Translations under genes and position numbers: made by a program
The notes under the pieces: generated by a model
The model's input: only the letters and a program-made list of their open reading frames with translations
The model's database searches: none
Told to the model about the DNA's origin: nothing
Shown: positions 10,401-43,333 of the stretch, piece by piece
Layout: every line of letters begins with the position of its first letter
Position numbering within the stretch: the first letter of the stretch is position 1
Assembly: GCA_963676915.2 (NCBI GenBank)
Contig: CAXXVK010000072.1
Coordinates: forward strand, 160,001 to 224,000
Reading direction: 5' to 3'
DNA from: Myxococcota bacterium
GTDB taxonomy: Bacteria; Myxococcota_A; SURF-8; G963663525
DNA length: 64,000 nt

Positions 10401-11126
10401 GGTTTTTATTGAAAAGGAAAAAGGAGGGAAATGTAATGTTTTTTCACTTTTTAATCGAACCGTTGAAAGTCATTTGTAATTATTGTCGACAAAAGTCTCA
10501 TGGCGAAGAAATCTCACTCAAACGAGCAAGTTTTGAACGGAGCAGCCTTAAAAGGGCTGGTAATGTATTTATAAAAGCTTACCATATTCTAATTTGGGAC
10601 TGGATGTTAATTTTTTACCTATGAAACCTGTTTGTAAAATGTGTGCCGATGAATGATGCAAAAAGTAACCGTTGAAATATTTTTATGGATTATGTTTGGA
10701 ATAATAAACGCTATGCGTTATTATAAAAATGAAAAGGGAGTTGACGAAGCACGTTCAGCTATAGGTCATTCAGCAGTCTACTTACACATCTTTGTGCAAC
10801 ATGGCAGTTCTTTGTTCCAAGTGTTTCCGAACTTTTAATAACACTAAGGACGGTGTAAAGTGTATTCGGAAGCGAATCATTTTTGCGTAAGGGTGTACGT
10901 GTGTCTGCAAATGAAACCATATAGAAATTTTTCTATTTCAAAGGCAAGTTTCGGGTTGATTGGAAACGGGACTATTTTGATGAACGTTTCTCGTATTATC
11001 GATGGGGTAAAGAAACGGACTCGGATGAAAGTTTTTTTAGATATCTAAGGTCAGGATTGAAAAGAAAAGAAACGGAAATCAGCAAAAAGTATAAAATTTA
11101 ATGGTTACATGAAAAAGGGGTAAATC

Positions 11127-12104
11127 ATGACAACCAAAGAAGAAACCACAAAAAAAGAATCGTTCGAGACCCGGTTTGAAAGGACGATTTTTCAATCTAT
11201 TAACCGAATATTCAAAGAACGCATCCATTGTGAAACTCTTAAAGAACTGAGCGAAACATGTTTGAGTGTTGCGGAAGAGTTGACCGGATCGAAATTTGGT
11301 TGGATAGGAGAACTGAATCCGGTCGGAAAGCTCGATACCATCGCCATTAGCAATCCAGGTTGGGATGCGTGCAATATGCCGGAGTCCGATGCTACTATCA
11401 TGATTTCAAATATGGAGTTGCGAGGACTTTGGGCCAGTGTGATTCACAATGGCCAATCCATGTACACCAATGACCCAATGGATCATCCCGATTCGGTCGG
11501 CATCCCGGAAGGTCATCCTCCTCTTACGTCATTCCTGGGAGTTCCTTTGAAAAAAGGGGATCAGGTTGTTGGAATGATTTCTTTGGGCAACAAGGAGGGA
11601 GGATACGACGATAGCGATATTTATTCTATGGAACGTCTCGCTGTGGCAGTGAATGAAGCTATCCACTCCAAGCGCTCTGAATTGAAAATTGCGCGTCAAA
11701 CTCAGGAGTTATTAGAAATTTCAACTCCGGTTTTGCAAATTTGGGATGGAATGGTGGTTGCGCCGTTGATCGGCACGCTGGATAGTCAAAGGACACAGCA
11801 CTTTATGGAACGACTTCTTCAGTCCATTGTTGATTATCAAGCTCCTATCGCACTGGTTGATATTACCGGTGTTCCTACCGTGGACACGCAAACCGCTCAT
11901 CATCTCATTGAAACTGTCAGTGCGGCGAAATTGCTTGGAGCAAAAGTCATTCTTACCGGAATCAGTCCCGAAATAGCACAGACCCTTATTCATTTGGGAA
12001 TAGATTTATCAAGCATTGATACGCGATCTTCGTTGGCTAGTGGGCTGATCATGGCTCTCGAAAAGATGAACATGATGATTGTCGACAAAAAAAAGCAGCT
12101 GTAA
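11127..12104 (+). CDS. rsbR: Stressosome RsbR-like sensor (GAF + STAS)
   Basis: GAF domain, then ELLEISTPVLQIWDG...PLIGTLDSQR...DITGVPTVDT STAS domain. Confidence 0.88.
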   Translation: MTTKEETTKKESFETRFERTIFQSINRIFKERIHCETLKELSETCLSVAEELTGSKFGWIGELNPVGKLDTIAISNPGWDACNMPESDATIMISNMELRGLWASVIHNGQSMYTNDPMDHPDSVGIPEGHPPLTSFLGVPLKKGDQVVGMISLGNKEGGYDDSDIYSMERLAVAVNEAIHSKRSELKIARQTQELLEISTPVLQIWDGMVVAPLIGTLDSQRTQHFMERLLQSIVDYQAPIALVDITGVPTVDTQTAHHLIETVSAAKLLGAKVILTGISPEIAQTLIHLGIDLSSIDTRSSLASGLIMALEKMNMMIVDKKKQL

Positions 12105-12146
12105 GCGAAATTTTATATTTGCACGTCCACAGAAAGGGTAAATGCC

Positions 12147-13490
12147 ATGATAATCAACGATGAATCTACCCAATCCAAAGACAGTATGAACAAACTTCAG
12201 GGAATCAAAGAGATCATTCGGAGATTTCCCGAAGTGATTTACGTCGCCGATCCCAAAACTTACGAGGTAATCCTTGTTAATGATCTTTTCGCTCAAGCTA
12301 TCGGGGAGGATCCGGTCGGAAAAAAATGTTACAAAGCGTTTCAGAATTTGGATGAACCATGCCCGTTTTGTACGAACGATATCATCGCGAAAAGCGATGA
12401 ACCCTATATATGGGAGTTTTACAACGAGAACTTAGATCGTCATTATTACATTTCCGATCAGATGGTTCCGTGGCCGGACGGGCGAAACGTTCGTTTCGAA
12501 GTCGCCATCGATATCACTGAAAAAGTGAAGGCGACGCAGGAGCGCAATAAAAATGCGTTGCAACTTCAGGAGCGAATCAAAGAACTTCATTGCATGACAT
12601 CGATTTCTTTGTTGCTGGCCGATGTGGAGACGGATTTCGACCAGGCGATGCAGCACATCGTCGATCTAATCCCCGAGTCCTGGCAATTTCCGGAACGAAC
12701 CAGTGCAAAAATCACTTTCGACGGTCAAACATTTTCATCTTCAAACCTGAAAGAAGGAGAAATTCGACAGATCGTGAAAATCGTCCTTCCGGATGAGGAG
12801 CGTAATGGCAAAATCGAAGTTTTCTACCATGATGAGAGAGAATCGGTTGTCGGTGAACCCTTTTTGAAAGAAGAAGAAGTTCTTCTAAAATCTATTGCTC
12901 GCGAGATTCGAAAATTCATACTTCGCAAAAGGGATCTGGAAGAACTTGTGCAACACAAGGAAAAACTGGAAATGTTGGTATCAAAACGTACCGCAGATTT
13001 GCAACGTGCCAACAACAAAATTGAATTGGAAATGTCTGAAAGCAATCGTAGAGCGGACATAATCAAGCAGCAGGCGGAGGATATTCTTGAGTTATCCACT
13101 CCGGTGATGCAGGTTTGGGATGGTGTGTTGCTGGCCCCGTTAATTGGAAATCTCGATAGCCGACGAGCCCAAAATTTCATGGAAGTACTGCTCAATTCCG
13201 TAGCAAAAGATAATGCCGAAGTCGCTATTATCGATATTACGGGAGTGGGTATCATCGACACGGAAACAGGACGAAACGTTTTAGAAACCATTTCTGCTAT
13301 TGGCCTTCTGGGGGCGCAGGTGATCTTAACCGGAGTACGAGCTACGGTTGCACAGACTCTTGTTCACCTCGGTGTGGATTTATCTGCGATTGAAACGTGT
13401 TCATCTCTTAAGTCGGGATTGCAGTTGGCTTTGTCGAAGCGAATGAAAAACGGTGCTTCGAGAATAGCTGGAGGTAAAGATGTTGGTTGA
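12147..13490 (+). CDS. rsbR: Second RsbR-like sensor (Cys-motif PAS + GAF-like + STAS)
   Basis: GKKCY...EPCPFC PAS; ELSTPVMQVWDG...PLIGNLDS...DITGV..IDT STAS. Confidence 0.85.
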   Translation: MIINDESTQSKDSMNKLQGIKEIIRRFPEVIYVADPKTYEVILVNDLFAQAIGEDPVGKKCYKAFQNLDEPCPFCTNDIIAKSDEPYIWEFYNENLDRHYYISDQMVPWPDGRNVRFEVAIDITEKVKATQERNKNALQLQERIKELHCMTSISLLLADVETDFDQAMQHIVDLIPESWQFPERTSAKITFDGQTFSSSNLKEGEIRQIVKIVLPDEERNGKIEVFYHDERESVVGEPFLKEEEVLLKSIAREIRKFILRKRDLEELVQHKEKLEMLVSKRTADLQRANNKIELEMSESNRRADIIKQQAEDILELSTPVMQVWDGVLLAPLIGNLDSRRAQNFMEVLLNSVAKDNAEVAIIDITGVGIIDTETGRNVLETISAIGLLGAQVILTGVRATVAQTLVHLGVDLSAIETCSSLKSGLQLALSKRMKNGASRIAGGKDVG

Positions 13491-13857
13491 GAACATATCC
13501 GTAATTCGTGTCAGAGATAAATTGTTGGTGACGGTACCTGCCGATCCGGACGATCAGACCATTTCCTTGCTTCAGGAAAAGGTGCTCGGAGCTATGGAGC
13601 GATCCGAAGCGCTCGGTTTGATACTGGACGTATCAATGGTTGAAACATTGGATTCCTATTTTGCGAGAACCATCGTGGAAACTTCCGACATGGTTTCCAT
13701 GATGGGCGGGGTTACCGTGATTGCCGGGATGCAGCCAATGGTCGCGATAACCGTGACGCAGCTCGGCCTTTCGTTGGGGCGAACGCAGTCTGCACTTGAT
13801 GTGGATCGTGCACTTGATCTACTCGACGAAATAAACAGCGGAGTTCGTAATGGTTAG
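13480..13857 (+). CDS. rsbS: RsbS anti-anti-sigma-type STAS protein
   Basis: LDVSMVETLDSYFAR (phospho-Ser motif), AGMQPMVAITVTQLGL. Confidence 0.9.
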   Translation: MLVENISVIRVRDKLLVTVPADPDDQTISLLQEKVLGAMERSEALGLILDVSMVETLDSYFARTIVETSDMVSMMGGVTVIAGMQPMVAITVTQLGLSLGRTQSALDVDRALDLLDEINSGVRNG

Positions 13858-14288
13858 ACAAGTAAATGGTGATGTTAATATCACGAATGAAATGGATATT
13901 ATCACCGCACGCAAAGTAGTGCGAAATGTGGCCGCTGAAATTGGTTTCAGTCTGACCGATGTCACACGAATCGTAACGTCGGCTTCGGAATTGGCCCGTA
14001 ATATCGTGACATATGCGGATAGCGGTGTGATGACCTGGCGGAAAATACACTCGCTAGATGGGCAGGGCATTGAAATTATTTTCACGGATAAAGGTCCGGG
14101 GATTGAAAACCTGGAAGATGCGAAAACCCCTGGTTTTTTCTACAGGCAAAGGGCTGGGTATGGGGATATCCGGTGCCAAGAGACTGATGGGAGAGATGGA
14201 AATCGAATCTGAAATAGGTATGGGTACGAAAGTCACCGTACGAAAATGGGCCAAGAGGTACAACGTTGAACGAACAGCAGGTGCTTAA
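13850..14288 (+). CDS. rsbT: RsbT Ser/Thr kinase, split by a +1 T in a T6 run at 14134-14139
   Basis: SELARNIVTYA, DKGPGI in one frame; removing one T restores GFSTGKGLGMGISGAKRLM...GTKVTVRKW. Confidence 0.85.
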
Positions 14289-15288
14289 AATAAACGTCCG
14301 AGGGGGAGAGGATACACTTAGAGCACCGCGTCTTGCGTCCGAGTTTTTAGAACGTTGTTTGTCCTTGAAAAAAAACAGGGACGAAATGCAGTTGGTGATT
14401 GTTGAACTGGCGACGAATTTGGAGAAACATGCCAAAGGTGGAGTTTTGATATTAAAAGAAATCCAGGAAAGTGACGAGAAAGGAGTGTTGATTCAGTCGT
14501 TGGATTGGGGACCGGGTATTGCCGATGTGAACGAAGCGATGAGAGATCGGTTTTCCACTTCCGGGAGTTTGGGTTTGGGACTTGGGACCGTCAATCGCCT
14601 GATGGACGAGATAAGAATTGAACCGAGGGCCAAAAACGGACAAGGAACGGTCATTACCTGTAAAAAATTGGATAGTGGAGTACAGGAGAGTTCGATAAGA
14701 TCTCCGTTACAAATCGGCGCAGCGAGCAGACCGCATCCCAATATGAGACAAAACGGTGATTCTTTTGTTGTAAAATCGACCAAAGATACAGCTTTTTTTG
14801 CAGTTATTGACGGATTGGGACATGGACAGTTTGCTCATCGAGCTTCGCATAAGGCACGATTGTATCTGGAAAACCATTACAAGGGATCTTTCAACGAAAT
14901 ATTCCGTGGAGTTGGGTATGAATGCCGTTCGACTCGAGGTGTGGTCATGAGCGCTGCACGAATAGACTGGAAAAGCAAAAAGCTATCTTTGGCTTCTATC
15001 GGTAATGTGGAAACAAAGATTTACGGCTCTTTAGCACCAGTCCGCATACCAACGAGGCGTGGAATTCTTGGCCAAGGATATCCTAAACCGAAAATTATCG
15101 AACAAGATTGGGATCCTATGATGCAGATCGTGATGTTTTCCGACGGATTGTCCTCTCATTGGCATGAAGAAGACGTGCAAAGGCTTTCTATGGAATCGGC
15201 ACAGAAAAGTGCGGCACATTTTTTAAGAAAATATGCCAAAGACAGCGATGATGCAACGATATTGATAGCCAAAACGAAAAAGTCATGA
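14266..15288 (+). CDS. rsbX: RsbT-like ATPase fused to an RsbX/SpoIIE PP2C phosphatase
   Basis: ELATNLEKHA, DWGPGI, GSLGLGLG, then NGD, VIDGLGHG, FSDGL, DDATIL. Confidence 0.85.
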   Translation: MNEQQVLKINVRGGEDTLRAPRLASEFLERCLSLKKNRDEMQLVIVELATNLEKHAKGGVLILKEIQESDEKGVLIQSLDWGPGIADVNEAMRDRFSTSGSLGLGLGTVNRLMDEIRIEPRAKNGQGTVITCKKLDSGVQESSIRSPLQIGAASRPHPNMRQNGDSFVVKSTKDTAFFAVIDGLGHGQFAHRASHKARLYLENHYKGSFNEIFRGVGYECRSTRGVVMSAARIDWKSKKLSLASIGNVETKIYGSLAPVRIPTRRGILGQGYPKPKIIEQDWDPMMQIVMFSDGLSSHWHEEDVQRLSMESAQKSAAHFLRKYAKDSDDATILIAKTKKS

Positions 15289-16178
15289 CAGAAAGAAAAT
15301 TACAAGAAGAGATTTCGTTTCTACGCCAACAGAACCACGATCTTATGGAAGAGTTGGAACGTACGAATCATGATTTGATGGAATTTGCACTCGTGCTTGA
15401 TGCCAAGGTGGAAGAGAAAACGAAAACCATCATGGAAATCAACAGTCAGCTCGAAAAACGAGTCGCTCAGCGAACCCATGAACTTGAGGTGGCGAATAAA
15501 GAACTCGAAGCGTTTGCTTATTCGGTATCACATGATTTGCGTGCTCCATTGCGGGCTATCGACGGATTCAGTCAGGCAATTATCGAAGATTTCTCGGATT
15601 CCTTCGATGATACGGCGAAGCTATATTTCGAGCGCATTCGAAAAGCAACCTTGAATATGGCAAGTCTGATCGATGATTTGCTGGAGTTGTCACGTATCAC
15701 GCGATCTGAGTTCAATGTCAGTGCAATCGATCTCGTTGCTTTGGCAAATGAGACGATCAAACTTTTACACCTGACGGAGCCGGAGAGAAAATACACTTTC
15801 CTTTGCCCTGAACGATTGGTTGTACAAGCAGACCTTGGACTCATGAGCATTGCGCTGAACAACCTGATTGGAAATGCCTGGAAATACACTTCCAAAACGG
15901 AAAGAAGTGTCATCGAATTCGGTACTATTGAGCAGAACGGCAAACCTCTGTATTTTATTAAAGACAATGGGGTGGGCTTCAATAACAAGTATGTGAAAAC
16001 CTTGTTTCAACCTTTTCAGCGCTTACATCCAAGCTCGGAGTTCGAAGGAACCGGAGTTGGTTTGGCAACCGTAAGTCGGGTTATTCAAAGACACAACGGA
16101 GAAATATGGGGAGAAGGCGAAGAAGGAAAAGGTGCGACCTTTTTCTTTACATTGGGTACTCGGTCGGAGGTTTTATAA
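15285..16178 (+). CDS. Sensor-less histidine kinase (coiled coil + HisKA + HATPase)
   Basis: FAYSVSHDLRAPLR, NLIGNAWKY, DNGVGF, FEGTGVGL. Confidence 0.92.
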   Translation: MTERKLQEEISFLRQQNHDLMEELERTNHDLMEFALVLDAKVEEKTKTIMEINSQLEKRVAQRTHELEVANKELEAFAYSVSHDLRAPLRAIDGFSQAIIEDFSDSFDDTAKLYFERIRKATLNMASLIDDLLELSRITRSEFNVSAIDLVALANETIKLLHLTEPERKYTFLCPERLVVQADLGLMSIALNNLIGNAWKYTSKTERSVIEFGTIEQNGKPLYFIKDNGVGFNNKYVKTLFQPFQRLHPSSEFEGTGVGLATVSRVIQRHNGEIWGEGEEGKGATFFFTLGTRSEVL

Positions 16179-16630
16179 TGAATGCTTTTAAGAGAAATAT
16201 TATTTTTTTAGTCGAAGACAATCCTGACGATGAAATTCTCACTCGTCGTGCCCTGAAAAGTAACAATCTTATCAACGAAATAGTAGTGGCACATGATGGA
16301 CAGGAAGCCATCGATTACCTATCCAATGAAAAGCCTTACGATAAAGGTCGCTTAACAGATTTTATCGCTTTTATTTTGCTGGATTTGAAACTACCGAAAA
16401 TCGGTGGTTTGGAAGTGTTGAAATTTGTCAGGTCCAACCCTGAAACAAAATTGACTCCGGTAATCATCCTAACATCTTCCAAAGAGGAAAGTGATATTGC
16501 GGAAAGTTATCGATTAGGAGCCAATAGTTATGTGCAAAAACCCGTCAGTTTCGCAAAGTTTACTGAATCGGTAAAACTGATGGGAGAGTATTGGTTGATA
16601 TTGAATGAATCTTGCTATCGGGATTTGTAA
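16178..16630 (+). CDS. Single-domain response regulator (Rcp1-like)
   Basis: LVEDNPDD, LLDLKLPK, LTSS, GANSYVQKP; ATG overlaps the kinase stop (TAATG). Confidence 0.9.
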   Translation: MNAFKRNIIFLVEDNPDDEILTRRALKSNNLINEIVVAHDGQEAIDYLSNEKPYDKGRLTDFIAFILLDLKLPKIGGLEVLKFVRSNPETKLTPVIILTSSKEESDIAESYRLGANSYVQKPVSFAKFTESVKLMGEYWLILNESCYRDL

Positions 16631-19600
16631 ATGAAAGAAACACTTAACATCCTGTTTGTTGAAGATTCAGAAACGGACGAACTTCTCTTTCTACGGGAAC
16701 TAAGTAAGGATGGTTTTCACGTAGAGTCTTTTCGTGTACAAACTCGTAACGAACTATTTCACGTTTTACAAGAAGATAAATGGGATCTGATTGTTATCGA
16801 TTATGTCGTCCCGGGCTTCGACGGACTGGAAGCTTTGAAAATCTGTACCGAAAAGAAACCGTTTCTCCCTATTATCTCAACAAGTGGAATCGTTAACGAA
16901 AGTGTCATTGTAGAAACCTTGCAATCCGGTGCTTACGATTATGTGTTGAAATCCAACCTCAAAAGAATTCCATCCGTTGTTAAACGAGCCTTGGAAAACG
17001 CGGAAATTCGTAAAAAAAGTGCACGGAACGAAGAAGAAAACATTCGCCTGCAACACGAATTGAAGCTGAAATATGAGATTGCGGAAATCTGCTTGTCAAC
17101 ACCGGAAAAGGATATGTACTCCGCAGTGCTGAAAATTGTGTTGAAAGAACTCAATAGTCCTTTCGGAGTATTTGGTTACGTCAACGACAGAAACTCGCTC
17201 GTATGCCCGTCGATGTCCCATGAGGTATGGGAACGCTGCAAGATGCCGAAGAAAGAGATAGAGTTCCCCAAGAGAAGTTGGAGTGGAATTTGGGGAAAGG
17301 CGTTGGCTGAAAAAAGGATTACTTTAAAAAACGAACCTGGCAAGGTTCCAGATGGTCATATTCCGATTACAAGATCACTCAATGTACCTGTTGTCTTTAA
17401 AGGCAACGTTATTGGTTTGTTTATGGTAGCGAATAAAGAAACCGACTATTCGCAAGCCGACACGTTATTGCTGGAAATGATTTCAAAACATATTTCACCA
17501 ATTCTGCAATCCAGACTTGAGATGGCCAGAGAATTGTATCGCCGTAAAAGGGCGGAGAAACGTTTTGCTCTCGCAATCAGGGGAGCAAATGACGGAGTTT
17601 GGGATTGGGATTTGCGAACGGATGAAATGTATTTTTCACCTCGTTGGAAAGAAATGATCGGCTATCGTGATGACGAATTAGAGAGTCGAATGGAGGTTTG
17701 GGAAGAACGCATCCATCCACAAGATCTGGAACATGTTCGGGGAGCAATTCAATCGTGCATATATGGGGAAGTAGAACGATTTACGCAAGAACACAGAATA
17801 CGACACAAAAATGGGGATTATCGATGGATTCTTATTTGTGGCGCATGTGAAAGGGACGATTTAGGAAAGCCGGTATTACTGGCAGGATCTTATACGGATA
17901 TTACTGAGAAAAAAACGGCAGAGCAGGAACGCAGTCGGCTTTATGAAGAAGCTCGACAAAAAGCGCATGATATGAGTTCGTTACTAAATGGAGCCAAGAA
18001 TGTTTTAGAAAAAGATGATTTTCGAGTGATTGCCAGACAATTATTCGATGAGGCGTGCGAGAATACAGGTGCTACTTCCGGGTACGTTGCATTACTAAGT
18101 GAAGATGGAGAGGAAAACGAAGTATTGTTTCTGGAATCAGGAGGATTGCCTTGCGATGTAGATCCTGGTTTGCCGATGCCTGTTCGAGGGTTGCGTGGTG
18201 AGGTTTATCGGTCCGGAAAAGTAGTCTGCCACAACGATTTTACGAATAGCGAATGGCAAAAGTTCCTACCCCAAGGACATGTTTCACTGAAAAACGTCCT
18301 GTTTGCTCCTCTAAATGTAGGGAAAAGAACTATAGGGATAATAGGGTTGGCCAACAAGGCTTCCGACTTCACAAAACGGGATTTGAGTATTGCAGCAGGA
18401 TTTGGGGAGCTGGCAGCTATTGCGCTCAAAAACTGGAAAATCCACGAAGCATTACGGAAAAGCGAAGAACAGCATCGCTTGTTGGCCGAAAATACGTCCG
18501 ATGTAATCTGGATGATGGGTCTTGATACTACCTTGACCTATGTGAATCCTGCCATACAGAAGAAGTTTGGGTTTTCACCGGAGGAGTTTATTGGAACTCG
18601 CCTTGGTAGCCATACGGACCCAAAAAATTTGCATATTATAAATAAGGCGCTCAAGGATAGTTTAACCAGGTCTCCAAATTACAAGACAATAACGTTCGAG
18701 TCTGAAATGTTTAGAAGCGATAAAACGTCGGTTCCTGTTGAAATATCCGCGAAAATCATTTCGGACGATGTTGGAGAACCCATAGCGCTGCAAGGCGTAA
18801 TTCGAGATATAACCGACAGAAAAAAAGCGGAAAAAGAAATTCTTGAACATCAGGAGCAATTGGAAAGAAAAGTAGAGGAACGCACTGTTGATTTGAAAAA
18901 AGCGCTTCAGCAGACCGAAGAATCACGAGAACGCATCGACACGATTTTAAAATCCGTAGCGGATGGATTGATCGTAACGGATAAGCACAATCATGTGTTG
19001 TTGATGAACCGAGCTGCAGAGGATATTTTGGGAATTCGTTTTAGTGATGTACTCAATCGTTCTATCGAGTACGCTATAGATGACAATACTCTTCGAGAAA
19101 AAATTATTACTACATTGGGTAAACAGCAAACCGGGTACGAATTCCACTTCACGCATGAAGACCCGGATACCCGGATAACCAAAACCATGCGTGCACGAAC
19201 CTCGGTCGTGCCGGATCATTTCGGGGGAATCAGCGGGATTGTAACCATTTTGCAGGATATTACCAAAGAACATGAAATCGACCGTATGAAAACGGAATTT
19301 ATATCCACAGCGGCTCACGAGTTGCGCACGCCGTTGACATCTATTCGTGGTTTTTCAGAAATATTGATGATTCGAGACAATATTCCAAAAGAAGAGAAAA
19401 ATAAATACCTTGGGCATATTCATAAACAATCGATTGGCTTGTCAAACATTATCAACGATCTGCTCGATATTTCTCGGATTGAATCAGGACGGGGATTTTC
19501 CCTGGATAAAAAACTTTGTGATGGTCAAACTGCGATAAAAAATGTTTTGCCGCATTTCAAAGAAGTTAGTCCAAAACATACATTTGTGGCAAAATTACAT

Positions 19601-19975
19601 GAAAAACCCGTTGAGCTATGGGTTGATGTCGAGAAAATGGAACAGGTTCTACGCAATCTTCTGAGCAATGCCGTCAAATATTCACCCAATGGGGGAACAA
19701 TAACCGTTAGTACGTGCTTGGATCAAAATGAGGATGAAGAAAATAAAGAATACTTTGTCATGTCCATTCAAGACGAGGGAATGGGTATGACACAGAACCA
19801 AGTTTCTCGTATTTTTGAGAAATTTTATCGAGCGGATGCTTCAAATACTGCGATTGAAGGGACAGGGTTAGGTATGAGTATTGTGAGGCACCTTGTGAAG
19901 GCTCATGACGGGAAAATAACAATCTCGAGTGAAAAAGGCACAGGAACGACCGTAAATATTTATTTGCCTTTATAG
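16631..19975 (+). CDS. Hybrid histidine kinase REC-GAF-PAS-GAF-PAS-PAS-HisKA-HATPase
   Basis: N-terminal REC (VEDS, IDY, YVLK), GVWDWD PAS, AAHELRTPL, NAVKYS, GTGLGM. Confidence 0.9.
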   Translation: MKETLNILFVEDSETDELLFLRELSKDGFHVESFRVQTRNELFHVLQEDKWDLIVIDYVVPGFDGLEALKICTEKKPFLPIISTSGIVNESVIVETLQSGAYDYVLKSNLKRIPSVVKRALENAEIRKKSARNEEENIRLQHELKLKYEIAEICLSTPEKDMYSAVLKIVLKELNSPFGVFGYVNDRNSLVCPSMSHEVWERCKMPKKEIEFPKRSWSGIWGKALAEKRITLKNEPGKVPDGHIPITRSLNVPVVFKGNVIGLFMVANKETDYSQADTLLLEMISKHISPILQSRLEMARELYRRKRAEKRFALAIRGANDGVWDWDLRTDEMYFSPRWKEMIGYRDDELESRMEVWEERIHPQDLEHVRGAIQSCIYGEVERFTQEHRIRHKNGDYRWILICGACERDDLGKPVLLAGSYTDITEKKTAEQERSRLYEEARQKAHDMSSLLNGAKNVLEKDDFRVIARQLFDEACENTGATSGYVALLSEDGEENEVLFLESGGLPCDVDPGLPMPVRGLRGEVYRSGKVVCHNDFTNSEWQKFLPQGHVSLKNVLFAPLNVGKRTIGIIGLANKASDFTKRDLSIAAGFGELAAIALKNWKIHEALRKSEEQHRLLAENTSDVIWMMGLDTTLTYVNPAIQKKFGFSPEEFIGTRLGSHTDPKNLHIINKALKDSLTRSPNYKTITFESEMFRSDKTSVPVEISAKIISDDVGEPIALQGVIRDITDRKKAEKEILEHQEQLERKVEERTVDLKKALQQTEESRERIDTILKSVADGLIVTDKHNHVLLMNRAAEDILGIRFSDVLNRSIEYAIDDNTLREKIITTLGKQQTGYEFHFTHEDPDTRITKTMRARTSVVPDHFGGISGIVTILQDITKEHEIDRMKTEFISTAAHELRTPLTSIRGFSEILMIRDNIPKEEKNKYLGHIHKQSIGLSNIINDLLDISRIESGRGFSLDKKLCDGQTAIKNVLPHFKEVSPKHTFVAKLHEKPVELWVDVEKMEQVLRNLLSNAVKYSPNGGTITVSTCLDQNEDEENKEYFVMSIQDEGMGMTQNQVSRIFEKFYRADASNTAIEGTGLGMSIVRHLVKAHDGKITISSEKGTGTTVNIYLPL

Positions 19976-19998
19976 AAAAGGCGATATTCTGGAGTTGT

Positions 19999-20370
19999 TT
20001 GATGAAAACCATACTTGTAGTTGATGATCGGGCGGAGATCCGTGAAATTGTAAAAGTAACCTTGAGTATTGAGGATTTTACGATTTTAGAGGCAAAGAAC
20101 GGTGATGAAGCCGTGCGGCTGGCAAGATTGCACAAACCGGACTTGATTATTATGGATTTGATGATGCCAGGTACTATCGATGGTCTCAAAGCAACAAAAA
20201 TCATCAAAGCCGACAATCGTTTGAATGCATGTAAAATTATCATTCTGACTGCTAGAAATCAAAAAGAAGATGAGGAAGCCATTGCCCAAGTGGGAGCCGA
20301 TGATTATTTCATTAAGCCGTTTAGTCCGTTGGAATTGATGAATAAGGTGGATCAGATATTGTCAGAATAG
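19999..20370 (+). CDS. Single-domain response regulator
   Basis: VVDD, MDLMMP, LTA, KPFSP. Confidence 0.9.
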   Translation: MMKTILVVDDRAEIREIVKVTLSIEDFTILEAKNGDEAVRLARLHKPDLIIMDLMMPGTIDGLKATKIIKADNRLNACKIIILTARNQKEDEEAIAQVGADDYFIKPFSPLELMNKVDQILSE

Positions 20371-20870: not shown

Positions 20871-22784
20871 ATGAAAAAGAAAAGCCGGACAATTAATATG
20901 GCTCTGTTGCTTGCCATACTGCTGTTCGTCGGAATCGGCGGATGCAGTGACTCGGGGAGTATCAGTGGAATCGACGGGAACAATGACGGAGACGATGACT
21001 GGACCGTTTCCGATGGCGACGGCGACGACGATACGGGCTATCCGTACCCATCGAACGGCGGCGATACCAGTGGAGAAAGCGAAGTCGATATCCAGAATCC
21101 GGCTGACCGCGATGTGGAAGAGTTGCCGGAAATCGACTACGAAGGTGCAACGGAAATCGCTTTAAGTTGCAGTGGAAGCACTATTACCGGTCCTGGAGCC
21201 GTTGAAGATGATAGCGACATTGTGATTTCCGAAGCGGGTTCCTACATTATTAGCGGGAAACTCTGTGACGGTCAGATCCGTGTGGATACCGAAGACAAAG
21301 ATCCCGTGGTCATCGTTTTCAACGGTATCGATGTCACCTGTTCCGATAGCGCACCGTTCTATGTTCTGGATGCGAAAGACGTGCAGATTATGCTGCAAGA
21401 AGGAACGGACAACAGCCTAACCGATGGAAGTTCCTACGTTTTCGAGTCCGCCGAGGAAGATGAACCCAACGCGGCACTGTTCAGCAAGGCCGATCTGGTT
21501 CTCTGCGGTAGTGGGAGCCTTACCGTCAAAGCCAATTATAACGACGGAATTGCTAGCAAAGACAGCCTTTGGATTACCGACGGATCGTACACCATTTCCG
21601 CGCAGGACGACGGCATCCGAGGCAAGGACGATCTTACGATCGACGGTGGAGAGTTCAATGTCGTCGTTCGTGGCGATGGCATGACCTCGGACAACGAGGA
21701 AGATGCGGAAAAAGGGTTCATTTTGATTACAGACGGTACCTTCGACATCGTGGCGAGTGGGGATGGCCTTGTCGCTGAGACCGGGATGATCATTTCCGGC
21801 GGTACCTTCGATATCACGGCAGGTGGCGGCAGTTCGGCGACGCTTTCCGATTCGGAATCCGGTAAAGGAATCAAAGGGATAGGTAGCGTCAGCATCACCG
21901 GCGGTTCGTTCATTATCGATTCCGCCGATGATGGCGTGCACTCGGATGGTGACATTTACATCGGTGGCGGAGCATTCGAGATCAGTGTGGCTGAAGGTGG
22001 TGGCGGTGGAGGCATGGGAGGTATGACCTCGAATGGCCAGGATGGTATCCATTCCGACACCACCATCCAGATCGATTCCGGTGCTATTGTTGTTACCAAG
22101 TCTTACGAAGGCATCGAAGCGACGACGATTATCATCAATGGCGGAACGATCGACGTTACGGCGACGGACGACGGATTCAACTGCGCCGGTGGCGATGGTT
22201 CGAGCGGTTGGGAGCCGGGACCGGGGCAAACCACAAGTGGCGATTATTACTTGTATATCAATGGTGGAAATATCTGGATGGACGCCGCAGGCGACGGACT
22301 TGATTCGAATGGCAGCATCGAAATTTCCGGCGGCGTGATCCTCGTAAACGGTCCGACCAACGATGGCAATGGCGCGATCGACTCGGGAGATTCTCGGGAC
22401 GACACCATCAGCGTCAAAGGCGGGTTGCTTGTTGCGGCGGGAAGTTCCGGAATGGCCGAAGCGCCTGATACCATTTCAAGTCAGAATTCTGTAATTGTTT
22501 ACCTTTCCAATGCGCAACAAGGCGGGCAGATTTTCCACATCGAGAAAAGCGATGGAACGGATATGTTGACCTACGCGCCGTCGAAAACCTACGAGTCGGT
22601 CGTGTTTTCCTCTCCGGAATTTACGACGGGCCAGTACAGCGTGTACCTAGGTGGGAGTTCGACTGGTACGTATTACAAAGGGTTGTATACCGACGGAACG
22701 TATACTCCCGGCACCTTGTACACGACATTTACGGTAAGTTCGGTCACAACACAGGTTGGTAACGGCGGGAATCCTCGTCCTTAA
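20871..22784 (+). CDS. Cthe_2159/DUF4353 beta-helix carbohydrate-binding lipoprotein
   Basis: Lipobox GIGGC; ISEAGSYIISG, repeated DGI/DDG motifs, DGLDSNG, NGAID, AAGSSGMAE. Confidence 0.85.
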   Translation: MKKKSRTINMALLLAILLFVGIGGCSDSGSISGIDGNNDGDDDWTVSDGDGDDDTGYPYPSNGGDTSGESEVDIQNPADRDVEELPEIDYEGATEIALSCSGSTITGPGAVEDDSDIVISEAGSYIISGKLCDGQIRVDTEDKDPVVIVFNGIDVTCSDSAPFYVLDAKDVQIMLQEGTDNSLTDGSSYVFESAEEDEPNAALFSKADLVLCGSGSLTVKANYNDGIASKDSLWITDGSYTISAQDDGIRGKDDLTIDGGEFNVVVRGDGMTSDNEEDAEKGFILITDGTFDIVASGDGLVAETGMIISGGTFDITAGGGSSATLSDSESGKGIKGIGSVSITGGSFIIDSADDGVHSDGDIYIGGGAFEISVAEGGGGGGMGGMTSNGQDGIHSDTTIQIDSGAIVVTKSYEGIEATTIIINGGTIDVTATDDGFNCAGGDGSSGWEPGPGQTTSGDYYLYINGGNIWMDAAGDGLDSNGSIEISGGVILVNGPTNDGNGAIDSGDSRDDTISVKGGLLVAAGSSGMAEAPDTISSQNSVIVYLSNAQQGGQIFHIEKSDGTDMLTYAPSKTYESVVFSSPEFTTGQYSVYLGGSSTGTYYKGLYTDGTYTPGTLYTTFTVSSVTTQVGNGGNPRP

Positions 22785-22797
22785 ACTCACAACGGTT

Positions 22798-22834
22798 TGT
22801 TTGCTCGGGATGTTTAAAACCTCCCGAGCAAGCA
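22798..22834 (+). terminator. Stem-loop after the Cthe_2159-type gene
   Basis: TTGCTCGGGA...TCCCGAGCAA perfect 10-bp stem, extendable; a second hairpin AAAACGG...CCGTTTT lies at about 22848-22870. Confidence 0.45.
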
Positions 22835-23016
22835 GAAGCAAACGCAGAAAAACGGTGGTCATTCCGTTTTGACTCACGACCCGGGTTGGTTGAAGTGTGG
22901 AGGCTCGACTTGAAACAGCAGGCGATCCGCACCGGTTCTCGAACGATGATATTGGCAGTGTGCTGACGTGATCCGATTGCAAGAAGGCTTCGAGCGCGAG
23001 AGAGGCAGGGCGAACC

Positions 23017-23697
23017 ATGGAAAGTTTACTACTAAGTTTCGGATCGGTGAAACTGGAATGGCAGCATTCATTGTTGTCGCTGCTATTGGCCTTTCTGCTT
23101 TCGAGCCTCGTTGCCGTCATATACGAGAAGACGTTTAGAGGTCTTTCCTGGTCGGTGAACCTGCTCCAGGCCATGATTCTCGGCAGCATGGTGGCCTGCA
23201 TCATCATGATCGCGATTGGTGACAACATTGCCCGAGGTATTGGTATCGTAGGTTCGTTGGCGATTATCCGTTTCCGAACCAATCTTCGTGATCCTCGCGA
23301 CCTTGTGTTCCTTTTCGCATCATTGGCGATTGGTGTGGCCTGCGGTGTTCAGAGCTATTCCACCGCCATCGTCGGTACGGTCATGTTCTCGATGGTCAGT
23401 ATCGGTTTGCAGATTACGGAATTCGGAAAGCATCGCCGCCACGATGGTATGGTCCGGTTCCAGGTTCCTGCCAATGGCGAAGCCTCTGCGAAAGTGTCCG
23501 AGATCCTGGAGCGTATCCCTCATCATTTCGCTCTCGTCACCCGGCGTAGCGTGGCCCAAGGTTCCATGATGGATTACGCCTACCAGGTGAAATTCAATCA
23601 AGACAAGGATTGTGAGTTGTTGATGCAGGAGTTGGAAAGCATCAAGGGAATTACCGGATTGGCCTATCTGAACCAGCAAACCACAGTGGAAGTGTAG
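23017..23697 (+). CDS. DUF4956 membrane protein (MgtC-like TM region + C-terminal ACT-like domain)
   Basis: IGDNIARGIGIVGSLAIIRFRTNLRDPRDLVFLF..LAIGVACG signature. Confidence 0.88.
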   Translation: MESLLLSFGSVKLEWQHSLLSLLLAFLLSSLVAVIYEKTFRGLSWSVNLLQAMILGSMVACIIMIAIGDNIARGIGIVGSLAIIRFRTNLRDPRDLVFLFASLAIGVACGVQSYSTAIVGTVMFSMVSIGLQITEFGKHRRHDGMVRFQVPANGEASAKVSEILERIPHHFALVTRRSVAQGSMMDYAYQVKFNQDKDCELLMQELESIKGITGLAYLNQQTTVEV

Positions 23698-23704
23698 GTG
23701 GACC

Positions 23705-24886
23705 ATGAACTTCATCAAGAAATACGGCTTTATCGGTCTATGGGGTATTTTTGCTGCTGTGGCATTCGGGATGTACTACTTTTACGCGGTCAACGCCGAT
23801 TTCATCGGGGTTGTCGAAACCCGAACCCACAAACTCAGCGCACAGGAATCGGGACGTATACAAAAAATCCTTGTTTCCCTAGGTGAGCAGGTGTCTGCCA
23901 ACCAACTCCTTGTTGCGATAGACACATCGGACCTCGATACGGAAAAAACCTGGTTGCAGGAAGAACTCAAGCGCTTGAAAAGCCTCGAAGAAGCCGACCG
24001 CAGCAGGTACGCACTGGAGTACGAAAAACTTCGCCTCCAGAGCGATGCGGATGCCTCACGTCTCGATCAATGGAGATCGGAACTCGAAGTGAAAAAGGCG
24101 GAGTTGCAAGCGGTAAACGATCAAATCCACCGTTTGGAACAAGCTCAAAAAGCCGGGCTTGGAAGAACCAAGGAAATGTCCGATCTTGTGATTCGGCGCG
24201 ATTCCCTGGCCAAGTACATCAGCGAACAAAACGCTGTCATGAAGAACAACTCGCGCAAATACGTGTCACGCAAGAAATCCGATAACCAAACGGAAAGCGA
24301 GCGCGTGGTGATGTCGTTGCTCGGCGAGCGAATGGAGCGTATCAACGAAATCAAACTTCGACTGAAAATTCTCGAAACGCGCAAAGACCGGAGCCAGGTG
24401 ATTACTCCCTGCGAGGGACGGGTTGTCAAAATCAATTACATGCCAGGCGATGCCGTAGAAGCTTTCCAAACCATTCTGACGATTGAGGAACCTCAGGCGG
24501 AGTTCATCGATGTCTACGTTCCTGAAACCTCCGACCGAACGCCTCTTCTGGGGGAACGTGTCGCCGTGTATCCTCACCGAACCGGAAAATTCGATTGCGA
24601 AGGTACGGTTGTTTTCGTCGATCCGGGATTCTCGGCAATTCCCGAACGTCTGACCTTCCGCAACCTCGTGTACTGGGCCAGGAAATTTCGTGTGCAACTC
24701 GATCCGGATCATCACATGATGCCGGGAGAAGCCGCCAAAGTTCGAATGCTTGGAAATGTTTCGACGGCTTCTTTGGCTCAAGTCGCCAAGTTGGCCAAGA
24801 CTGTACCCGTCGATGATTCGGCACATAAAAAGCCGGAGCGAAGCCAAGCCAAACCTCTTCTTGTGGCTCAACCGGAAGGAAGGTGA
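23705..24886 (+). CDS. HlyD-family periplasmic adaptor (membrane fusion protein)
   Basis: N-terminal TM anchor, SGRIQKILVSLGEQV and TPCEGRVVKINYMPGDAV lipoyl halves, long coiled coil, MMPGE. Confidence 0.85.
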   Translation: MNFIKKYGFIGLWGIFAAVAFGMYYFYAVNADFIGVVETRTHKLSAQESGRIQKILVSLGEQVSANQLLVAIDTSDLDTEKTWLQEELKRLKSLEEADRSRYALEYEKLRLQSDADASRLDQWRSELEVKKAELQAVNDQIHRLEQAQKAGLGRTKEMSDLVIRRDSLAKYISEQNAVMKNNSRKYVSRKKSDNQTESERVVMSLLGERMERINEIKLRLKILETRKDRSQVITPCEGRVVKINYMPGDAVEAFQTILTIEEPQAEFIDVYVPETSDRTPLLGERVAVYPHRTGKFDCEGTVVFVDPGFSAIPERLTFRNLVYWARKFRVQLDPDHHMMPGEAAKVRMLGNVSTASLAQVAKLAKTVPVDDSAHKKPERSQAKPLLVAQPEGR

Positions 24887-24890
24887 TGTC

Positions 24891-26174
24891 ATGGTTCGTA
24901 TGCCGTCACAGATTCTGATCGCTTGTCTTCTCGTGATGGGTGGATCTTTGAACGCCTTTTCTCAGGGAGAGAATGCAAACGGCGATTCTTTTGAAAACGC
25001 TTCCATCACGGAAAGCGAAGCCATACAAAAAAGTCTCGAAAAAAGTCGTGGATTGCGAAAAATCCAAAGCGAAGTAGCTGCCCAGAGCAAAATCTCTGCC
25101 TCTGCCAGATACGATGTAAAAAACCCGGAACTCCGCTTGCGGGACATTTCCACGAAATATTTCGATAAAGACGAAGACAACAAGCAATTCCAATTCGGGC
25201 TTCGCTGGAAACCTCCGCAGATCGGCGAGTTGGGAACGAAACAGCGCAAAGAACGCGTCAACTTGTGGGAAAAGAAAACGAAAGCATGGGAAGCCCGTCA
25301 GGCTCTGATTGCTGATGTCAGGGAAGTTTACGCTACGCTTGGTATGCTTCAATCGTACTCCGGTCTTACCCAACAACAAGCAGAGTTGCATAGACAATTG
25401 TTTCTCGTGGTCGAAAAACTCGGAGAGCTTGGACGAAGATCCCCGCTCGATCGCATCAAAGTGCGTCGAAAATATTTAAAAGCCAAAAAAGAGGCCGCCG
25501 GAACCGCACAGCGATACGAGGAGACGAAGCAGCAATTCTCGGCACTTACAGGAGAAGAAGAAGGCGTAACGGTTTTGTGGTCCGAACCGGAGGTACTTCC
25601 TATAGATGAAGCCATCATTCACGAACGAGCGGTTACCGCTCATCCTGCGGTAGAGTTGGCAAGGCAACGCAGCGAATTTTTCGCTTACCGGTACAAGGCG
25701 GAGCGATATAAGCTTATTCCCTGGTTTACCTTCGTCGATGTTTCCTACCAGTATGAAAGCAAAAAGAAGGATTCGGGAGAGCTGGTATTGGGCATCGAAT
25801 TGCCGCTTTTCAATTGGAATCTCGGCGAGTTGCGTGCCACCGAAATCGAGCGGAAGCAAGGGAAGCTCTCGTCTAGTCTGGCCATCGCTTCGATCGATCG
25901 CAAATTGAAAGAACGTTTGGCCGAATATGACAAAGCTGTGGCTGAATATCGATCCTTGAAAGAGGAAACGGACGGATCGCTTTCGCAATCGGAAAACATG
26001 GTCGCACAAGCGAAGCTACAGGAATTGCCGGAAGACGAAATTCTTGAGATGGAAATCTCGAATATCGAACTGCGAATGATGCTGTTGGAAGCAGGATTTC
26101 GAGTTAAAAAAGCTGCAATCGAACTCTGCCGAACGGCCGGAGTGGAAAACGACAGAGAATTGACTCGGGAATAG
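24891..26174 (+). CDS. TolC-family outer-membrane channel
   Basis: Signal peptide, NPELRL, LIADVREVY, HPAVE, LGIELPLFNWNLGE. Confidence 0.8.
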   Translation: MVRMPSQILIACLLVMGGSLNAFSQGENANGDSFENASITESEAIQKSLEKSRGLRKIQSEVAAQSKISASARYDVKNPELRLRDISTKYFDKDEDNKQFQFGLRWKPPQIGELGTKQRKERVNLWEKKTKAWEARQALIADVREVYATLGMLQSYSGLTQQQAELHRQLFLVVEKLGELGRRSPLDRIKVRRKYLKAKKEAAGTAQRYEETKQQFSALTGEEEGVTVLWSEPEVLPIDEAIIHERAVTAHPAVELARQRSEFFAYRYKAERYKLIPWFTFVDVSYQYESKKKDSGELVLGIELPLFNWNLGELRATEIERKQGKLSSSLAIASIDRKLKERLAEYDKAVAEYRSLKEETDGSLSQSENMVAQAKLQELPEDEILEMEISNIELRMMLLEAGFRVKKAAIELCRTAGVENDRELTRE

Positions 26175-26963
26175 GTGGTTGCCATGTCTGCTGGAAAATC
26201 GATGGTTATCAGTCGGTACGAGAGCAAATACCTTGTTCCAGAGGCTAAAGCGCGTGCCATTCGTAACTTCATCATGGGTTTTTGCACCCCCGATAGTCAC
26301 GCCGACGCCAACGGTCGGTACGTCGTCAATAATTTCTACTTCGACACGCCCGACCTGCGGTTTTATTACGACACGAAGTACAAACAGTACAATCGTTTCA
26401 AGCTAAGAATGCGATATTACGGGGATATTCCTGAAGAACTTCTCTGGCTCGAAATCAAGCATAAGGTACAGAACGTAACATGGAAAACCCGAAGAAACTG
26501 TATGGTATCCGATTGGGATTCGATTTTCGAGTGCGAAGACTCTTTGGCGCAAAAATCGGAGAACGTCTCCCTGAGGGATTCTTTCGAAAATGCCGTCATC
26601 CGGTTCGGAGCCGAACCCAAGGTTCACGTTCGTTACGTACGTGAACCGTATATTTGCGATTTCGAAGAATATTGCCGAATCACGTTCGATCGTTGCCTTT
26701 CTTTCCGATCAACGGACGGGTCCATGAACCTCGTAAGCAACAAACCCTTCCTATATTATGATGATGTCGTAACCTCCGTTTTCGAGGACGACGATTCGCC
26801 GGTGATTCTCGAAATCAAAACCGAAAACCAGGTTCCCATATGGGTGATGGAACTGATTCGGACGTTCCAATTGCGGCGGCGCGGGTTTTCGAAATACTGT
26901 TACGCCATCGATAACAGCAAAGAAAGAGCCGGAGGAGGATTGCGGGTCAACGCATGTCTGTAA
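26175..26963 (+). CDS. VTC-domain polyphosphate polymerase (CYTH/TTM fold)
   Basis: RYESKY, YFDTPD, KLRMRYY, LEIKHK, RITFD, ILEIK, FSKYC motifs. Confidence 0.9.
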   Translation: MVAMSAGKSMVISRYESKYLVPEAKARAIRNFIMGFCTPDSHADANGRYVVNNFYFDTPDLRFYYDTKYKQYNRFKLRMRYYGDIPEELLWLEIKHKVQNVTWKTRRNCMVSDWDSIFECEDSLAQKSENVSLRDSFENAVIRFGAEPKVHVRYVREPYICDFEEYCRITFDRCLSFRSTDGSMNLVSNKPFLYYDDVVTSVFEDDDSPVILEIKTENQVPIWVMELIRTFQLRRRGFSKYCYAIDNSKERAGGGLRVNACL

Positions 26964-41938: not shown

Positions 41939-41966
41939 GTTTTTGGGCTCCCTTCCACGAGACGAA

Positions 41967-42869: not shown

Positions 42870-43333
42870 GGTTCTTCCTTCCGATTTTGCTGGATCATCA
42901 GGTTCCAGATGTCTTCGGAGTTTTCGGCTTGCATCACGCTTTCACGAAAGGAACGATGACGGCACATTTTTGAAATTGTCGCCAGCGCCTTGAGATGGTC
43001 TGTCGTTGCCTGACTCGGCGCGACGATCAGGAAAAAAATATGAGAAGGTTTTCCGTCGATAGCTTGAAATTCCACCCCTTGCGAACTTCTCGCAAAGCAG
43101 CAGCGGAGTCGGTCGAGTCCTTCGATTTTGCAGTGAGGGACGGCCACGCCGTTTTCGATTCCCGTACTCCCCAGTTTTTCACGATCGAGAATGTTTCGGA
43201 TAATCGTCTCGCGGTTGAGTTCCGGATAACATTGGAGCAATAAATCGACCAGTTCCCGAATTGCCGGTATTTTTTCACTTGCAGCCAGATCCGTAAAAAT
43301 CGCTTCTGCTGAAAGTACCTCTTCGATCCTCAT
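42866..43333 (-). CDS. ptsN: PTS EIIA-Ntr
   Basis: REKLGSTGIENGVAVPH, HLKALA. Confidence 0.9.
   Translation of the reverse strand: MRIEEVLSAEAIFTDLAASEKIPAIRELVDLLLQCYPELNRETIIRNILDREKLGSTGIENGVAVPHCKIEGLDRLRCCFARSSQGVEFQAIDGKPSHIFFLIVAPSQATTDHLKALATISKMCRHRSFRESVMQAENSEDIWNLMIQQNRKEEP

Follow-up and report, generated by a model that had tools for sequence, protein, structure and literature searches.

The four-gene cassette and its operon

This analysis concerns a stretch of 64,000 nucleotides (nt) from a Myxococcota bacterium (GenBank assembly GCA_963676915.2, contig CAXXVK010000072.1, positions 160,001 to 224,000 of the forward strand), hereafter denoted the window and numbered from its first letter, in which five co-oriented open reading frames (ORFs) on the plus strand span positions 20871-26963. 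The last four of these, which encode a DUF4956 membrane protein, a periplasmic adaptor, a TolC-type outer-membrane factor (hereafter, the duct) and a VTC-domain protein, make up what we denote the cassette; we see in it a strong candidate for a hitherto undescribed route of polyphosphate export. A preliminary description of this DNA had named five co-oriented genes of these families, and both the ORF listing and a Pfam analysis of the window bear this out. The features of the operon are as follows.

20871..22784, plus strand: Cthe_2159-family beta-helix protein (Pfam PF14262, E 3.6e-97)
22796..22836, plus strand: strong stem-loop at the 3′ end of the Cthe_2159 gene (folding energy -26.5 kcal/mol, z -5.23)
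23017..23697, plus strand: DUF4956 protein, 226 residues (Pfam PF16316, E 7e-13)
23705..24886, plus strand: periplasmic adaptor (membrane fusion protein) of EmrA/HlyD type, 393 residues (HlyD_D23, HlyD_3, Biotin_lipoyl)
24891..26174, plus strand: TolC-type outer-membrane factor, 427 residues (OEP PF02321, E 3.3e-12, two stretches)
26175..26963, plus strand: VTC-domain protein, 262 residues from the GTG at 26175 (PF09359, E 3e-35)

Direct reading of the junctions gives the spacings of 7, 4 and 0 nt that had been reported for the last four genes: 7 nt lie between the DUF4956 stop codon and the adaptor ATG, 4 nt between the adaptor TGA and the duct ATG at 24891, which has a Shine-Dalgarno-like run, GGAAGGAAGG, close on its 5′ side, and 0 nt between the duct TAG and the VTC GTG at 26175. 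The database copy of the VTC protein (P0001) has 259 residues, consistent with a start at the ATG at 26184, which would leave a gap of 9 nt after the duct. The ORF listing likewise holds alternative starts for the Cthe_2159 gene (20766 or 20871) and for the duct (24750 or 24891). The Cthe_2159 gene stands apart, with 232 nt separating it from the DUF4956 gene downstream.

None of the 50 window ORFs scanned by Pfam belongs to the ABC, RND or MFS family. The operon thus has no such transporter, as the preliminary description had stated, and its gene content leaves DUF4956 as its sole polytopic inner-membrane protein, a further point of that description, whose observations proved correct wherever they could be checked.

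Conservation across double-membraned bacteria

An alignment of 52 of 118 VTC homologues was used to scan one genome per species. The scan matched 261 stretches, 207 of which encode a relative; the locus counts given here refer to the best 80 of these 207, with up to 10 kilobases (kb) on each side of the VTC gene. ORFs in these loci were called by a longest-ORF heuristic and searched with profiles built from the window's own proteins. Fifty-seven of the 80 loci are informative in that they extend at least 4.3 kb 5′ of the VTC gene, the other 23 ending at contig edges.

Genes for DUF4956 and the adaptor are present in all 57 informative loci, and a TolC-type ORF lies between the adaptor and VTC in 56 of the 57 (48 recognised by gene-call clusters, seven more by a TolC hidden Markov model (HMM), and L056 by an HMM of a divergent 'TolC2' group, E 6.3e-15). 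The linkage of HlyD and TolC proteins to VTC and DUF4956, for which the preliminary description had proposed a gene-neighbourhood survey, is therefore kept. The lone exception for the duct, L072, has four other ORFs between adaptor and VTC, including one for a metallophosphoesterase. In the 23 shorter loci, which break off within or ahead of the cassette, the expected genes appear in the expected order up to the contig edge. The usual order is DUF4956, adaptor, duct, VTC; DUF4956 follows VTC in L066 and L071, and two ORFs intervene between DUF4956 and the adaptor in L015. Median distances at the three successive junctions are +5, -4 and -4 nt (over 62, 67 and 76 junctions, respectively). Since it recurs in all but one of the informative loci of other genomes, the arrangement of the cassette is far beyond chance.

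The carriers are labelled as at least 12 diderm (double-membraned) lineages, under the names Myxococcota, KSB1, Calditrichota, Neomarinimicrobiota, Ignavibacteria, Gemmatimonadota, Latescibacterota, Fibrobacterota/Chitinispirillia, Campylobacterales, Gammaproteobacteria, Planctomycetota, Bdellovibrionales, Delongbacteria and Nitrospiria. A deep split runs through the VTC proteins, which are either 32-38% or 40-68% identical to the query. The same split is seen in DUF4956 (39-47% versus 54-85% identity), in the adaptor (15-23% versus 32-68% identity to the homologue from L001) and in the duct (TolC versus 'TolC2' groups), which indicates that the four genes diverged together as a unit.

The related loci also lack a cognate pump, as the window does. 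The 80 loci comprise 886 called genes. Outside the cassette, 33 of them encode polytopic proteins and one encodes ABC ATPase motifs; Pfam covers 30 of the 33, the remainder being two L044 genes, which resemble scanned genes of L037, and a 137-residue ORF of L068. A member of a pump family occurs within 10 kb in only 4 of the 80 loci, never inside the cassette, and none of the four is conserved: a MacB-like permease 879 base pairs (bp) upstream in L022, an AcrB encoded 1.5 kb downstream on the other strand in L041, an AcrB with an adaptor of its own 6.3 kb away in L003, and an ABC exporter on the opposite strand in L067. An energised ABC, RND, MFS or PET transporter encoded with the adaptor, one of the features of tripartite systems, is thus absent from the scanned window ORFs and is not conserved in the 80 loci.

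For comparison with single-membraned bacteria, a protein search of a plasmid collection returned four VTC loci, all monoderm (Planococcus, Paenibacillus, Enterococcus and Nonomuraea). In each of the four, VTC is followed directly by DUF4956 (HMM E-values of 1e-25 to 4e-43 for VTC, and of 2e-20 to 6e-48 for DUF4956), whereas an HMM search of the same four loci found no match to adaptor or duct. A CotH gene joins the Planococcus locus and a Cthe_2159 gene (E 4e-136) that of Paenibacillus. The window holds the same trio of VTC, DUF4956 and a secreted protein of the CotH or Cthe_2159 kind, but with adaptor and duct set between DUF4956 and VTC. The absence of these two genes from the monoderm loci suggests that they were added where a second membrane must be crossed; the contrast matches what was expected, in comparing diderms with monoderms, of an envelope-crossing product.

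Related gene sets are on record in Gram-positive bacteria, where streptococcal, clostridial and bifidobacterial loci are described as having genes for CotH, a polyphosphate polymerase and DUF4956, beside pel loci (PMC7112168; PMC12345266). In Streptococcus intermedius, deletion of the DUF4956 and CotH homologues is reported to lower Pel-dependent aggregation, a cell-surface phenotype (PMC12345266). A 2026 preprint describes kinase-independent extracellular polyphosphate in the Bacillus cereus group, with no known route of synthesis or export, and notes that B. cereus lacks a VTC4 homologue (PMC13484657). In a literature search that left most subscription journals outside, we found no prior description of the four-gene cassette and no paper on DUF4956 in diderm loci, and the papers found give no function for bacterial VTC/DUF4956/CotH cassettes. 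As a separate observation, a DUF4956 gene of Bacteroides thetaiotaomicron is listed together with a DUF2490 gene (BT3498-BT3499) in a table of PMC10434189, and DUF2490 is classed as a putative outer-membrane porin family (TC 1.B.81; PMC4827864); DUF2490 may be a different outer-membrane partner in Bacteroidota.

Component proteins, accessory genes and genomic context

The VTC protein matches PF09359 with 122.3 bits (cut-off 23), covering profile positions 2-231 of 235, and is of cytoplasmic type, with neither a signal peptide, nor a transmembrane (TM) segment, nor an SPX domain. The family profile matches the catalytic domain of yeast Vtc4 (3g3q) with E 1.6e-13, as against 7e-7 to 2e-4 for the non-catalytic Vtc2 and Vtc3. 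When aligned by HMMER to 3g3q/5iiq, with numbering taken from the full-length chain 8i6v_E, residues K200, R264, R266, E426, S457 and K458 of Vtc4, which we take to be catalytically important residues of its active site, correspond to K18, R78, R80, E213, S239 and K240, each invariant in 53 sequences. The alignment bears out the earlier statement that the catalytic motifs are intact and, as judged from its sequence, the protein (262 residues, or 259 if initiated at the downstream ATG) is a triphosphate-tunnel enzyme of the Vtc4 polyphosphate-polymerase type.

The DUF4956 protein matches its own Pfam family with 49 bits (cut-off 30.6). It also resembles MgtC (PF02308; E 6e-5), but at 23.8 bits it lies under the gathering score of 31.4, and with NF011912 it scores 19.6 against a cut-off of 255, so that it falls outside the MgtC family. 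The AlphaFold2 model (pLDDT 78.8) is predicted to consist of five helices (residues 15-133) and a C-terminal ACT-like domain (residues 144-219); a Foldseek search with this model returned ACT domains only, including the C-terminal domains of MgtC proteins (2lqj and 7qa5), all with E > 1e-3. Invariant residues in an alignment of relatives include R73, R85, F86, R87, D92, D95, D143 and R147. By the positive-inside rule the N-terminus would lie outside and the C-terminus inside, which would place the invariant RFRTNLRDPRD stretch at the cytoplasmic face of the membrane. We propose that DUF4956 acts as an inner-membrane platform or channel. Predictions of a DUF4956-VTC complex, made from locus-matched alignments and run without controls, scored 0.37, 0.18 and 0.01 (median 0.18, against a mark of 0.32). 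The DUF4956 profile has 6455 matches among 1.84 billion representatives (clusters at 50% identity).

The adaptor matches HlyD_D23 (1.1e-10), HlyD_3 (6.5e-7) and Biotin_lipoyl in Pfam; its best NCBIfam match, EmrA/EmrK, is far under the cut-off, and with TIGR01843 (type_I_hlyD) it scores 28.8 bits against a cut-off of 208, which sets it outside type I HlyD proper. It is laid out as a cytoplasmic tail of about 7 residues, one TM anchor, a lipoyl domain, a long alpha-hairpin and a beta-barrel, with no membrane-proximal domain. The structure model was made for the L001 homologue, which is 68% identical to the window adaptor (pLDDT 88.4); its hairpin has two helices of about 78 residues each, and its best matches in the Protein Data Bank are EmrA (8zal and 4tko, E ~5e-16 to 1e-15) and also MacA. 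The adaptor is of the type that docks on a small inner-membrane partner and not on a large RND periplasmic domain. Most adaptor homologue ORFs (39 of 66) are of a long form of about 650-716 residues, in which a disordered linker is followed by a C-terminal beta-propeller (for example L001:6653-8704, and in L004, L012, L018, L032, L058 and L080). This domain is modelled with confidence and weakly resembles the DUF3616, phytase-like, DUF6929 and SdiA-regulated families. The window adaptor is of a short form with no propeller, as is that of L003, the propeller having been lost or never present. An HMM built from the 39 long-form C-terminal domains found no stand-alone propeller outside adaptor genes in the loci, the window or the monoderm loci. 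Separate 'SdiA-regulated' propeller genes at some short-adaptor loci were considered as split-off copies, an idea that the propeller HMM does not support at the level of sequence.

The duct carries a signal peptide and two OEP repeats (47 bits, cut-off 22). Since the NCBIfam subfamily models for TolC and NodT match only at 25 and 16 bits, far below their cut-offs, it is best classed as a divergent member of the TolC family. The still different 'TolC2' group is homologous to the first group of ducts (hhalign probability 98.5%, E 2e-15).

Accessory genes at the related loci overwhelmingly encode secreted or surface proteins, many with the sorting tails of the type IX secretion system (T9SS). In a hand tally, proteins with lamin-tail domains (LTD) occur in 39 of the 80 loci, CotH proteins in 19 and arylsulfotransferase-like proteins in 7; a triple-LTD protein of about 680 residues with a T9SS tail often lies directly 3′ of VTC (for example L018:6473-8536, L024:10791-12827, L029:11763-13793 and L032:11108-13153). 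The LTD and CotH proteins resemble a fifth component of semi-conserved kind; neither occurs in the window.

Several rarer neighbours were also seen. Proteins with an FGE-sulfatase domain are encoded beside the cassette in 6 of the related loci, frequently accompanied by arylsulfotransferase-like proteins (for example L002:6566-7582, L057:4697-6265), and the window itself has two of them, at 8478-10397 (minus strand) and 62747-63697 (plus strand), each over 10 kb away from the operon. In L055, 29 bp separate the cassette from a gene for a Pit/PHO4-type phosphate transporter (10794-11810, minus strand), and in L072 a calcineurin-like phosphoesterase is encoded between adaptor and VTC (6385-7530), each a single case; together they hint at a link to phosphate. 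In one clade VTC is followed by a secreted protein of about 1135 residues with a C-terminus like that of outer-membrane proteins and a very weak SprA-like match (L045:10970-14377, L052:3043-6480, L047:1023-3176). An ORF of 1146 residues in L052 that appeared to be a VTC fusion was set aside: the same region in L045 is a separate gene for the secreted 1135-residue protein, which makes read-through or an assembly effect the probable origin of the fusion.

The N-terminus of the Cthe_2159 protein, MKKKSRTINMALLLAILLFVGIGGC, fits a lipoprotein signal ending in IGGC, and the protein is probably a lipoprotein. It is very acidic (pI 4.05; 103 D and E residues versus 25 K and R). The preliminary description had made this lipoprotein the receiving end of an export machine, but a Cthe_2159 gene adjoins the cassette in just 2 of the 80 related loci (L001 and L036). 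The gene is an accessory neighbour that is not conserved, and it lies outside the conserved system. Directly after its stop codon stands the hairpin at 22796-22836, which none of 200 shuffled sequences matches in folding; it has no U-tract and no entry in a simple terminator scan. This hairpin between the Cthe_2159 gene and the cassette may act as a terminator, an attenuator or a processing site, and the Cthe_2159 gene may accordingly be a separate or attenuated transcription unit, transcribed partly alone. A promoter and terminator scan of the plus strand gave nothing exceeding shuffled expectation.

The operon is flanked upstream by genes for partner-switching and two-component signalling and downstream by msrAB on the opposite strand. 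The upstream genes form a plus-strand run at 11127-20370, directly 5′ of the operon, which encodes GAF-STAS and STAS proteins, HATPase_c_2 anti-sigma-like kinases, a histidine kinase, response regulators and a hybrid kinase of 1114 residues with PAS and GAF domains; these may be regulators of the cassette. The Myxococcota relatives instead have an OmpR-type regulator and a HAMP kinase divergently adjacent to the cassette. An assignment of this pair as PhoB/PhoR was rejected: only generic OmpR/BaeS-like matches, far under every cut-off, were obtained, and these give no specific tie to the phosphate regulon. Elsewhere in the window, enzyme I of the phosphotransferase system (PTS) looks split on the minus strand at 39450-41209 (N-terminal and mobile domains at 40442-41209, PEP-binding domain at 39450-40430), within a cluster of rpoN, ptsN, rapZ and HPr-type genes (41213-44972); this could be a frameshift or a truly split gene.

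A candidate export mechanism, its rivals and known systems

The conserved order and joint divergence of the four genes make it very probable that they form one functional module in which DUF4956 is the inner-membrane partner of the adaptor. What such a module does is a more tentative matter. We find a polymerisation-coupled trans-envelope exporter of polyphosphate to be the best reading and the most economical mechanism, although we rate it as slightly less likely than not; secretion of polyphosphate by the four-gene module we place at the same level or a little lower. We infer polyphosphate as the product, conduction by DUF4956, the assembly of the four proteins, polymerisation as the driving force, the direction and the destination.

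In the mechanism we propose, the pair of VTC and DUF4956 would replace the usual ABC, RND or MFS pump of an envelope-spanning export machine. The cytoplasmic VTC enzyme would extend a polyphosphate chain from ATP, like yeast Vtc4, and the growing chain would enter a DUF4956 oligomer, whose invariant Arg/Asp cluster (within RFRTNLRDPRD) is predicted to face the cytoplasm at the membrane surface. The TM-anchored EmrA-like adaptor would bridge the periplasm as a sealed tube linking DUF4956 with the duct, such that the polymer would exit, or reach the cell surface, bypassing the periplasm. Outside, it would meet variable secreted partners, here the Cthe_2159 lipoprotein and elsewhere LTD and CotH-kinase proteins. 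The export machine of the preliminary description is thereby supported in part: of the three refuting conditions set out there, the two examined, a linkage not kept in other genomes and a cognate pump at homologous loci, both turned out in its favour, whilst its receiving end is not conserved. A wider proposal, in which the cassette represents a new trans-envelope secretion class and the exported polyphosphate is a phosphoryl donor or scaffold with which CotH, LTD and Cthe_2159 proteins build a phosphorylated or Ca/Mg-polyphosphate matrix, is improbable as it stands. Outside the cell, where there is no ATP, polyphosphate would serve these proteins, the CotH kinases among them, as donor or scaffold; we are far less sure of such a use beyond the cell than of the core of polyphosphate secretion.

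Several observations weigh against the export reading. No experiment in the papers found shows any bacterial VTC protein making polyphosphate. The TM part of DUF4956 has no Foldseek match to any solved transporter or channel, and the protein has no relationship to Vtc1/DUF202, the channel of the eukaryotic VTC complex, its only Pfam matches being DUF4956 and sub-threshold MgtC; the relatives of MgtC are described as regulators of F-ATPase and PhoR, not as channels (PMC12345266). No credible gene fusion joins parts of the cassette. The best 150 of the 6455 DUF4956 relatives are all stand-alone proteins of at most 351 residues, with no fusion among them, and a search for VTC fusions gave no long forms, which is weak evidence. 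A metagenome protein of 512 residues (P0119, from a 2-kb contig) that resembled a DUF4956-adaptor fusion looks like an artefact: the body of DUF4956 is followed by a low-complexity stretch in place of its C-terminus and then by an ordinary adaptor N-terminus, and such a junction most likely reflects a frameshift merging two neighbouring genes. The window adaptor may be a reduced form, given that 39 of 66 homologues have the propeller that it lacks, and the strongly acidic Cthe_2159 protein could hold a polyanion only by way of bridging cations. Finally, the conservation described here applies to a VTC subfamily with identities to the query of at least ~32%, the other 127 of the 207 relatives and the Bacteroidota lying outside the sample.

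Three other explanations deserve consideration. The four genes could encode one export module with a different cargo, VTC being an NTP- or triphosphate-hydrolysing motor or regulator and DUF4956 moving cations, a small anionic metabolite or a modified sugar or phosphate compound. The conservation of the module and the absence of a pump argue for the unit and are silent on the cargo. The tunnel enzymes of the TTM/CYTH superfamily include triphosphatases and cyclases as general knowledge has it, the architecture of DUF4956 is MgtC-like, and the sulfotransferase-like and FGE-sulfatase-like accessory proteins suggest a surface chemistry that may exceed phosphate alone; all of this leaves room for another cargo. 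That the VTC profile fits catalytic Vtc4 much better than Vtc2/3, that the residues aligned to the Vtc4 polymerase site are invariant without exception, and that the cassette has no further conserved biosynthetic enzyme nonetheless make it rather unlikely. Delivery of polyphosphate across the inner membrane only, with the adaptor and duct handing it to the periplasm or outer membrane (as a chelator, chaperone or envelope component) with no release, is in our view the least probable explanation. It draws on the periplasmic beta-propeller, weakly phytase-like, DUF3616-like or DUF6929-like, of most adaptor homologues, which suggests periplasmic handling, and on the two loci with a Pit-type phosphate transporter alongside or a metallophosphoesterase within the cassette. 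However, sealed adaptor-TolC tubes bypass the periplasm in the solved EmrAB-TolC and MacAB-TolC structures, and the T9SS tails of the frequent accessory proteins imply that these act at or beyond the outer membrane.

The third possibility separates the genes by function: VTC and DUF4956 would make or regulate a cytoplasmic or membrane-associated pool of polyphosphate, whilst the adaptor and duct would serve an unlinked pump and share the locus as members of a regulon. Outer-membrane factors, and sometimes adaptors, can serve pumps encoded elsewhere, as is established for E. coli TolC (reviewed in PMC8277102), and proteins of the MgtC family act as regulators (PMC12345266). Such a grouping fits poorly with the placement of adaptor and duct between DUF4956 and VTC, with overlapping or near-abutting codons in most loci, with the persistence of this arrangement over at least 12 lineages, and with the monoderm loci, which keep VTC and DUF4956 and have no adaptor/duct pair. 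Adaptor genes normally adjoin the gene of their inner-membrane partner, and here that neighbour is DUF4956. We therefore consider service to an unlinked pump distinctly unlikely.

Bacterial VTC/DUF4956/CotH cassettes are widespread, DUF4956 alone accounting for 6455 clusters at 50% identity, and the cassette described here offers a concrete, testable candidate for a polyphosphate export route in double-membraned bacteria. Should the export reading be true, it would mean a new type of inner-membrane engine for tripartite systems, run by polymer synthesis and not by ATP hydrolysis or proton flow, and would hint at the substrate or donor of secreted CotH kinases. As a simple four-gene unit, the cassette is expressible in a heterologous host.

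With the eukaryotic VTC complex (Vtc4 with Vtc1 and Vtc2/3; 7ytj, 8i6v, 3g3q) the cassette shares the family of the catalytic domain and the invariant catalytic residues and, in the proposed logic, a cytoplasmic polymerase that would feed its product through a small membrane channel. The bacterial VTC protein differs in being a free protein of 262 residues with no SPX or TM domain; its partner is DUF4956, which is MgtC-like with an ACT-like domain, and not the three-helix Vtc1/DUF202, and the proposed destination lies across a double membrane via adaptor and duct, not in the vacuole. The cassette is thus not a member of the eukaryotic VTC complex type, and may work alike. Synthase-dependent secretion of exopolysaccharides (cellulose, alginate, Pel, PNAG) employs glycosyltransferase synthases, TPR scaffolds and beta-barrel porins; the likeness is one of concept only, in that polymerisation would be coupled to inner-membrane translocation with a co-encoded outer-membrane exit. 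There is no homology, the cassette having instead a phosphoanhydride polymerase-type enzyme with an adaptor and duct of the efflux-pump type.

To EmrAB-TolC and MacAB-TolC the cassette is similar in the fold of its adaptor, with a TM anchor, a long hairpin and no membrane-proximal domain, and in the adjacent duct of the TolC family. It is unlike them in having no MFS, ABC or RND pump, in its inner-membrane protein of 226 residues with five predicted helices, in the co-encoded polymerase-type enzyme, and in the extra C-terminal beta-propeller of 39 of the 66 adaptor homologues. HlyD of type I secretion has a cytoplasmic N-terminal region of about 60 residues, as against some 7 residues before the TM helix here, and the cassette has no ABC gene. 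The MgtC/SapB family resembles DUF4956 in combining an N-terminal helical membrane domain with a C-terminal ACT-like domain, although the fold matches are weak, DUF4956 scores below the MgtC gathering threshold, and MgtC is described as a regulator and not as part of a tripartite system (PMC12345266). Also related are the monoderm cassettes of VTC, DUF4956 and CotH or Cthe_2159 (for example S. intermedius SIR_1592-1594), which have homologous VTC and DUF4956 proteins and accessory proteins of the same families, but from which the window and its diderm relatives are distinguished by the adaptor and duct encoded between DUF4956 and VTC.

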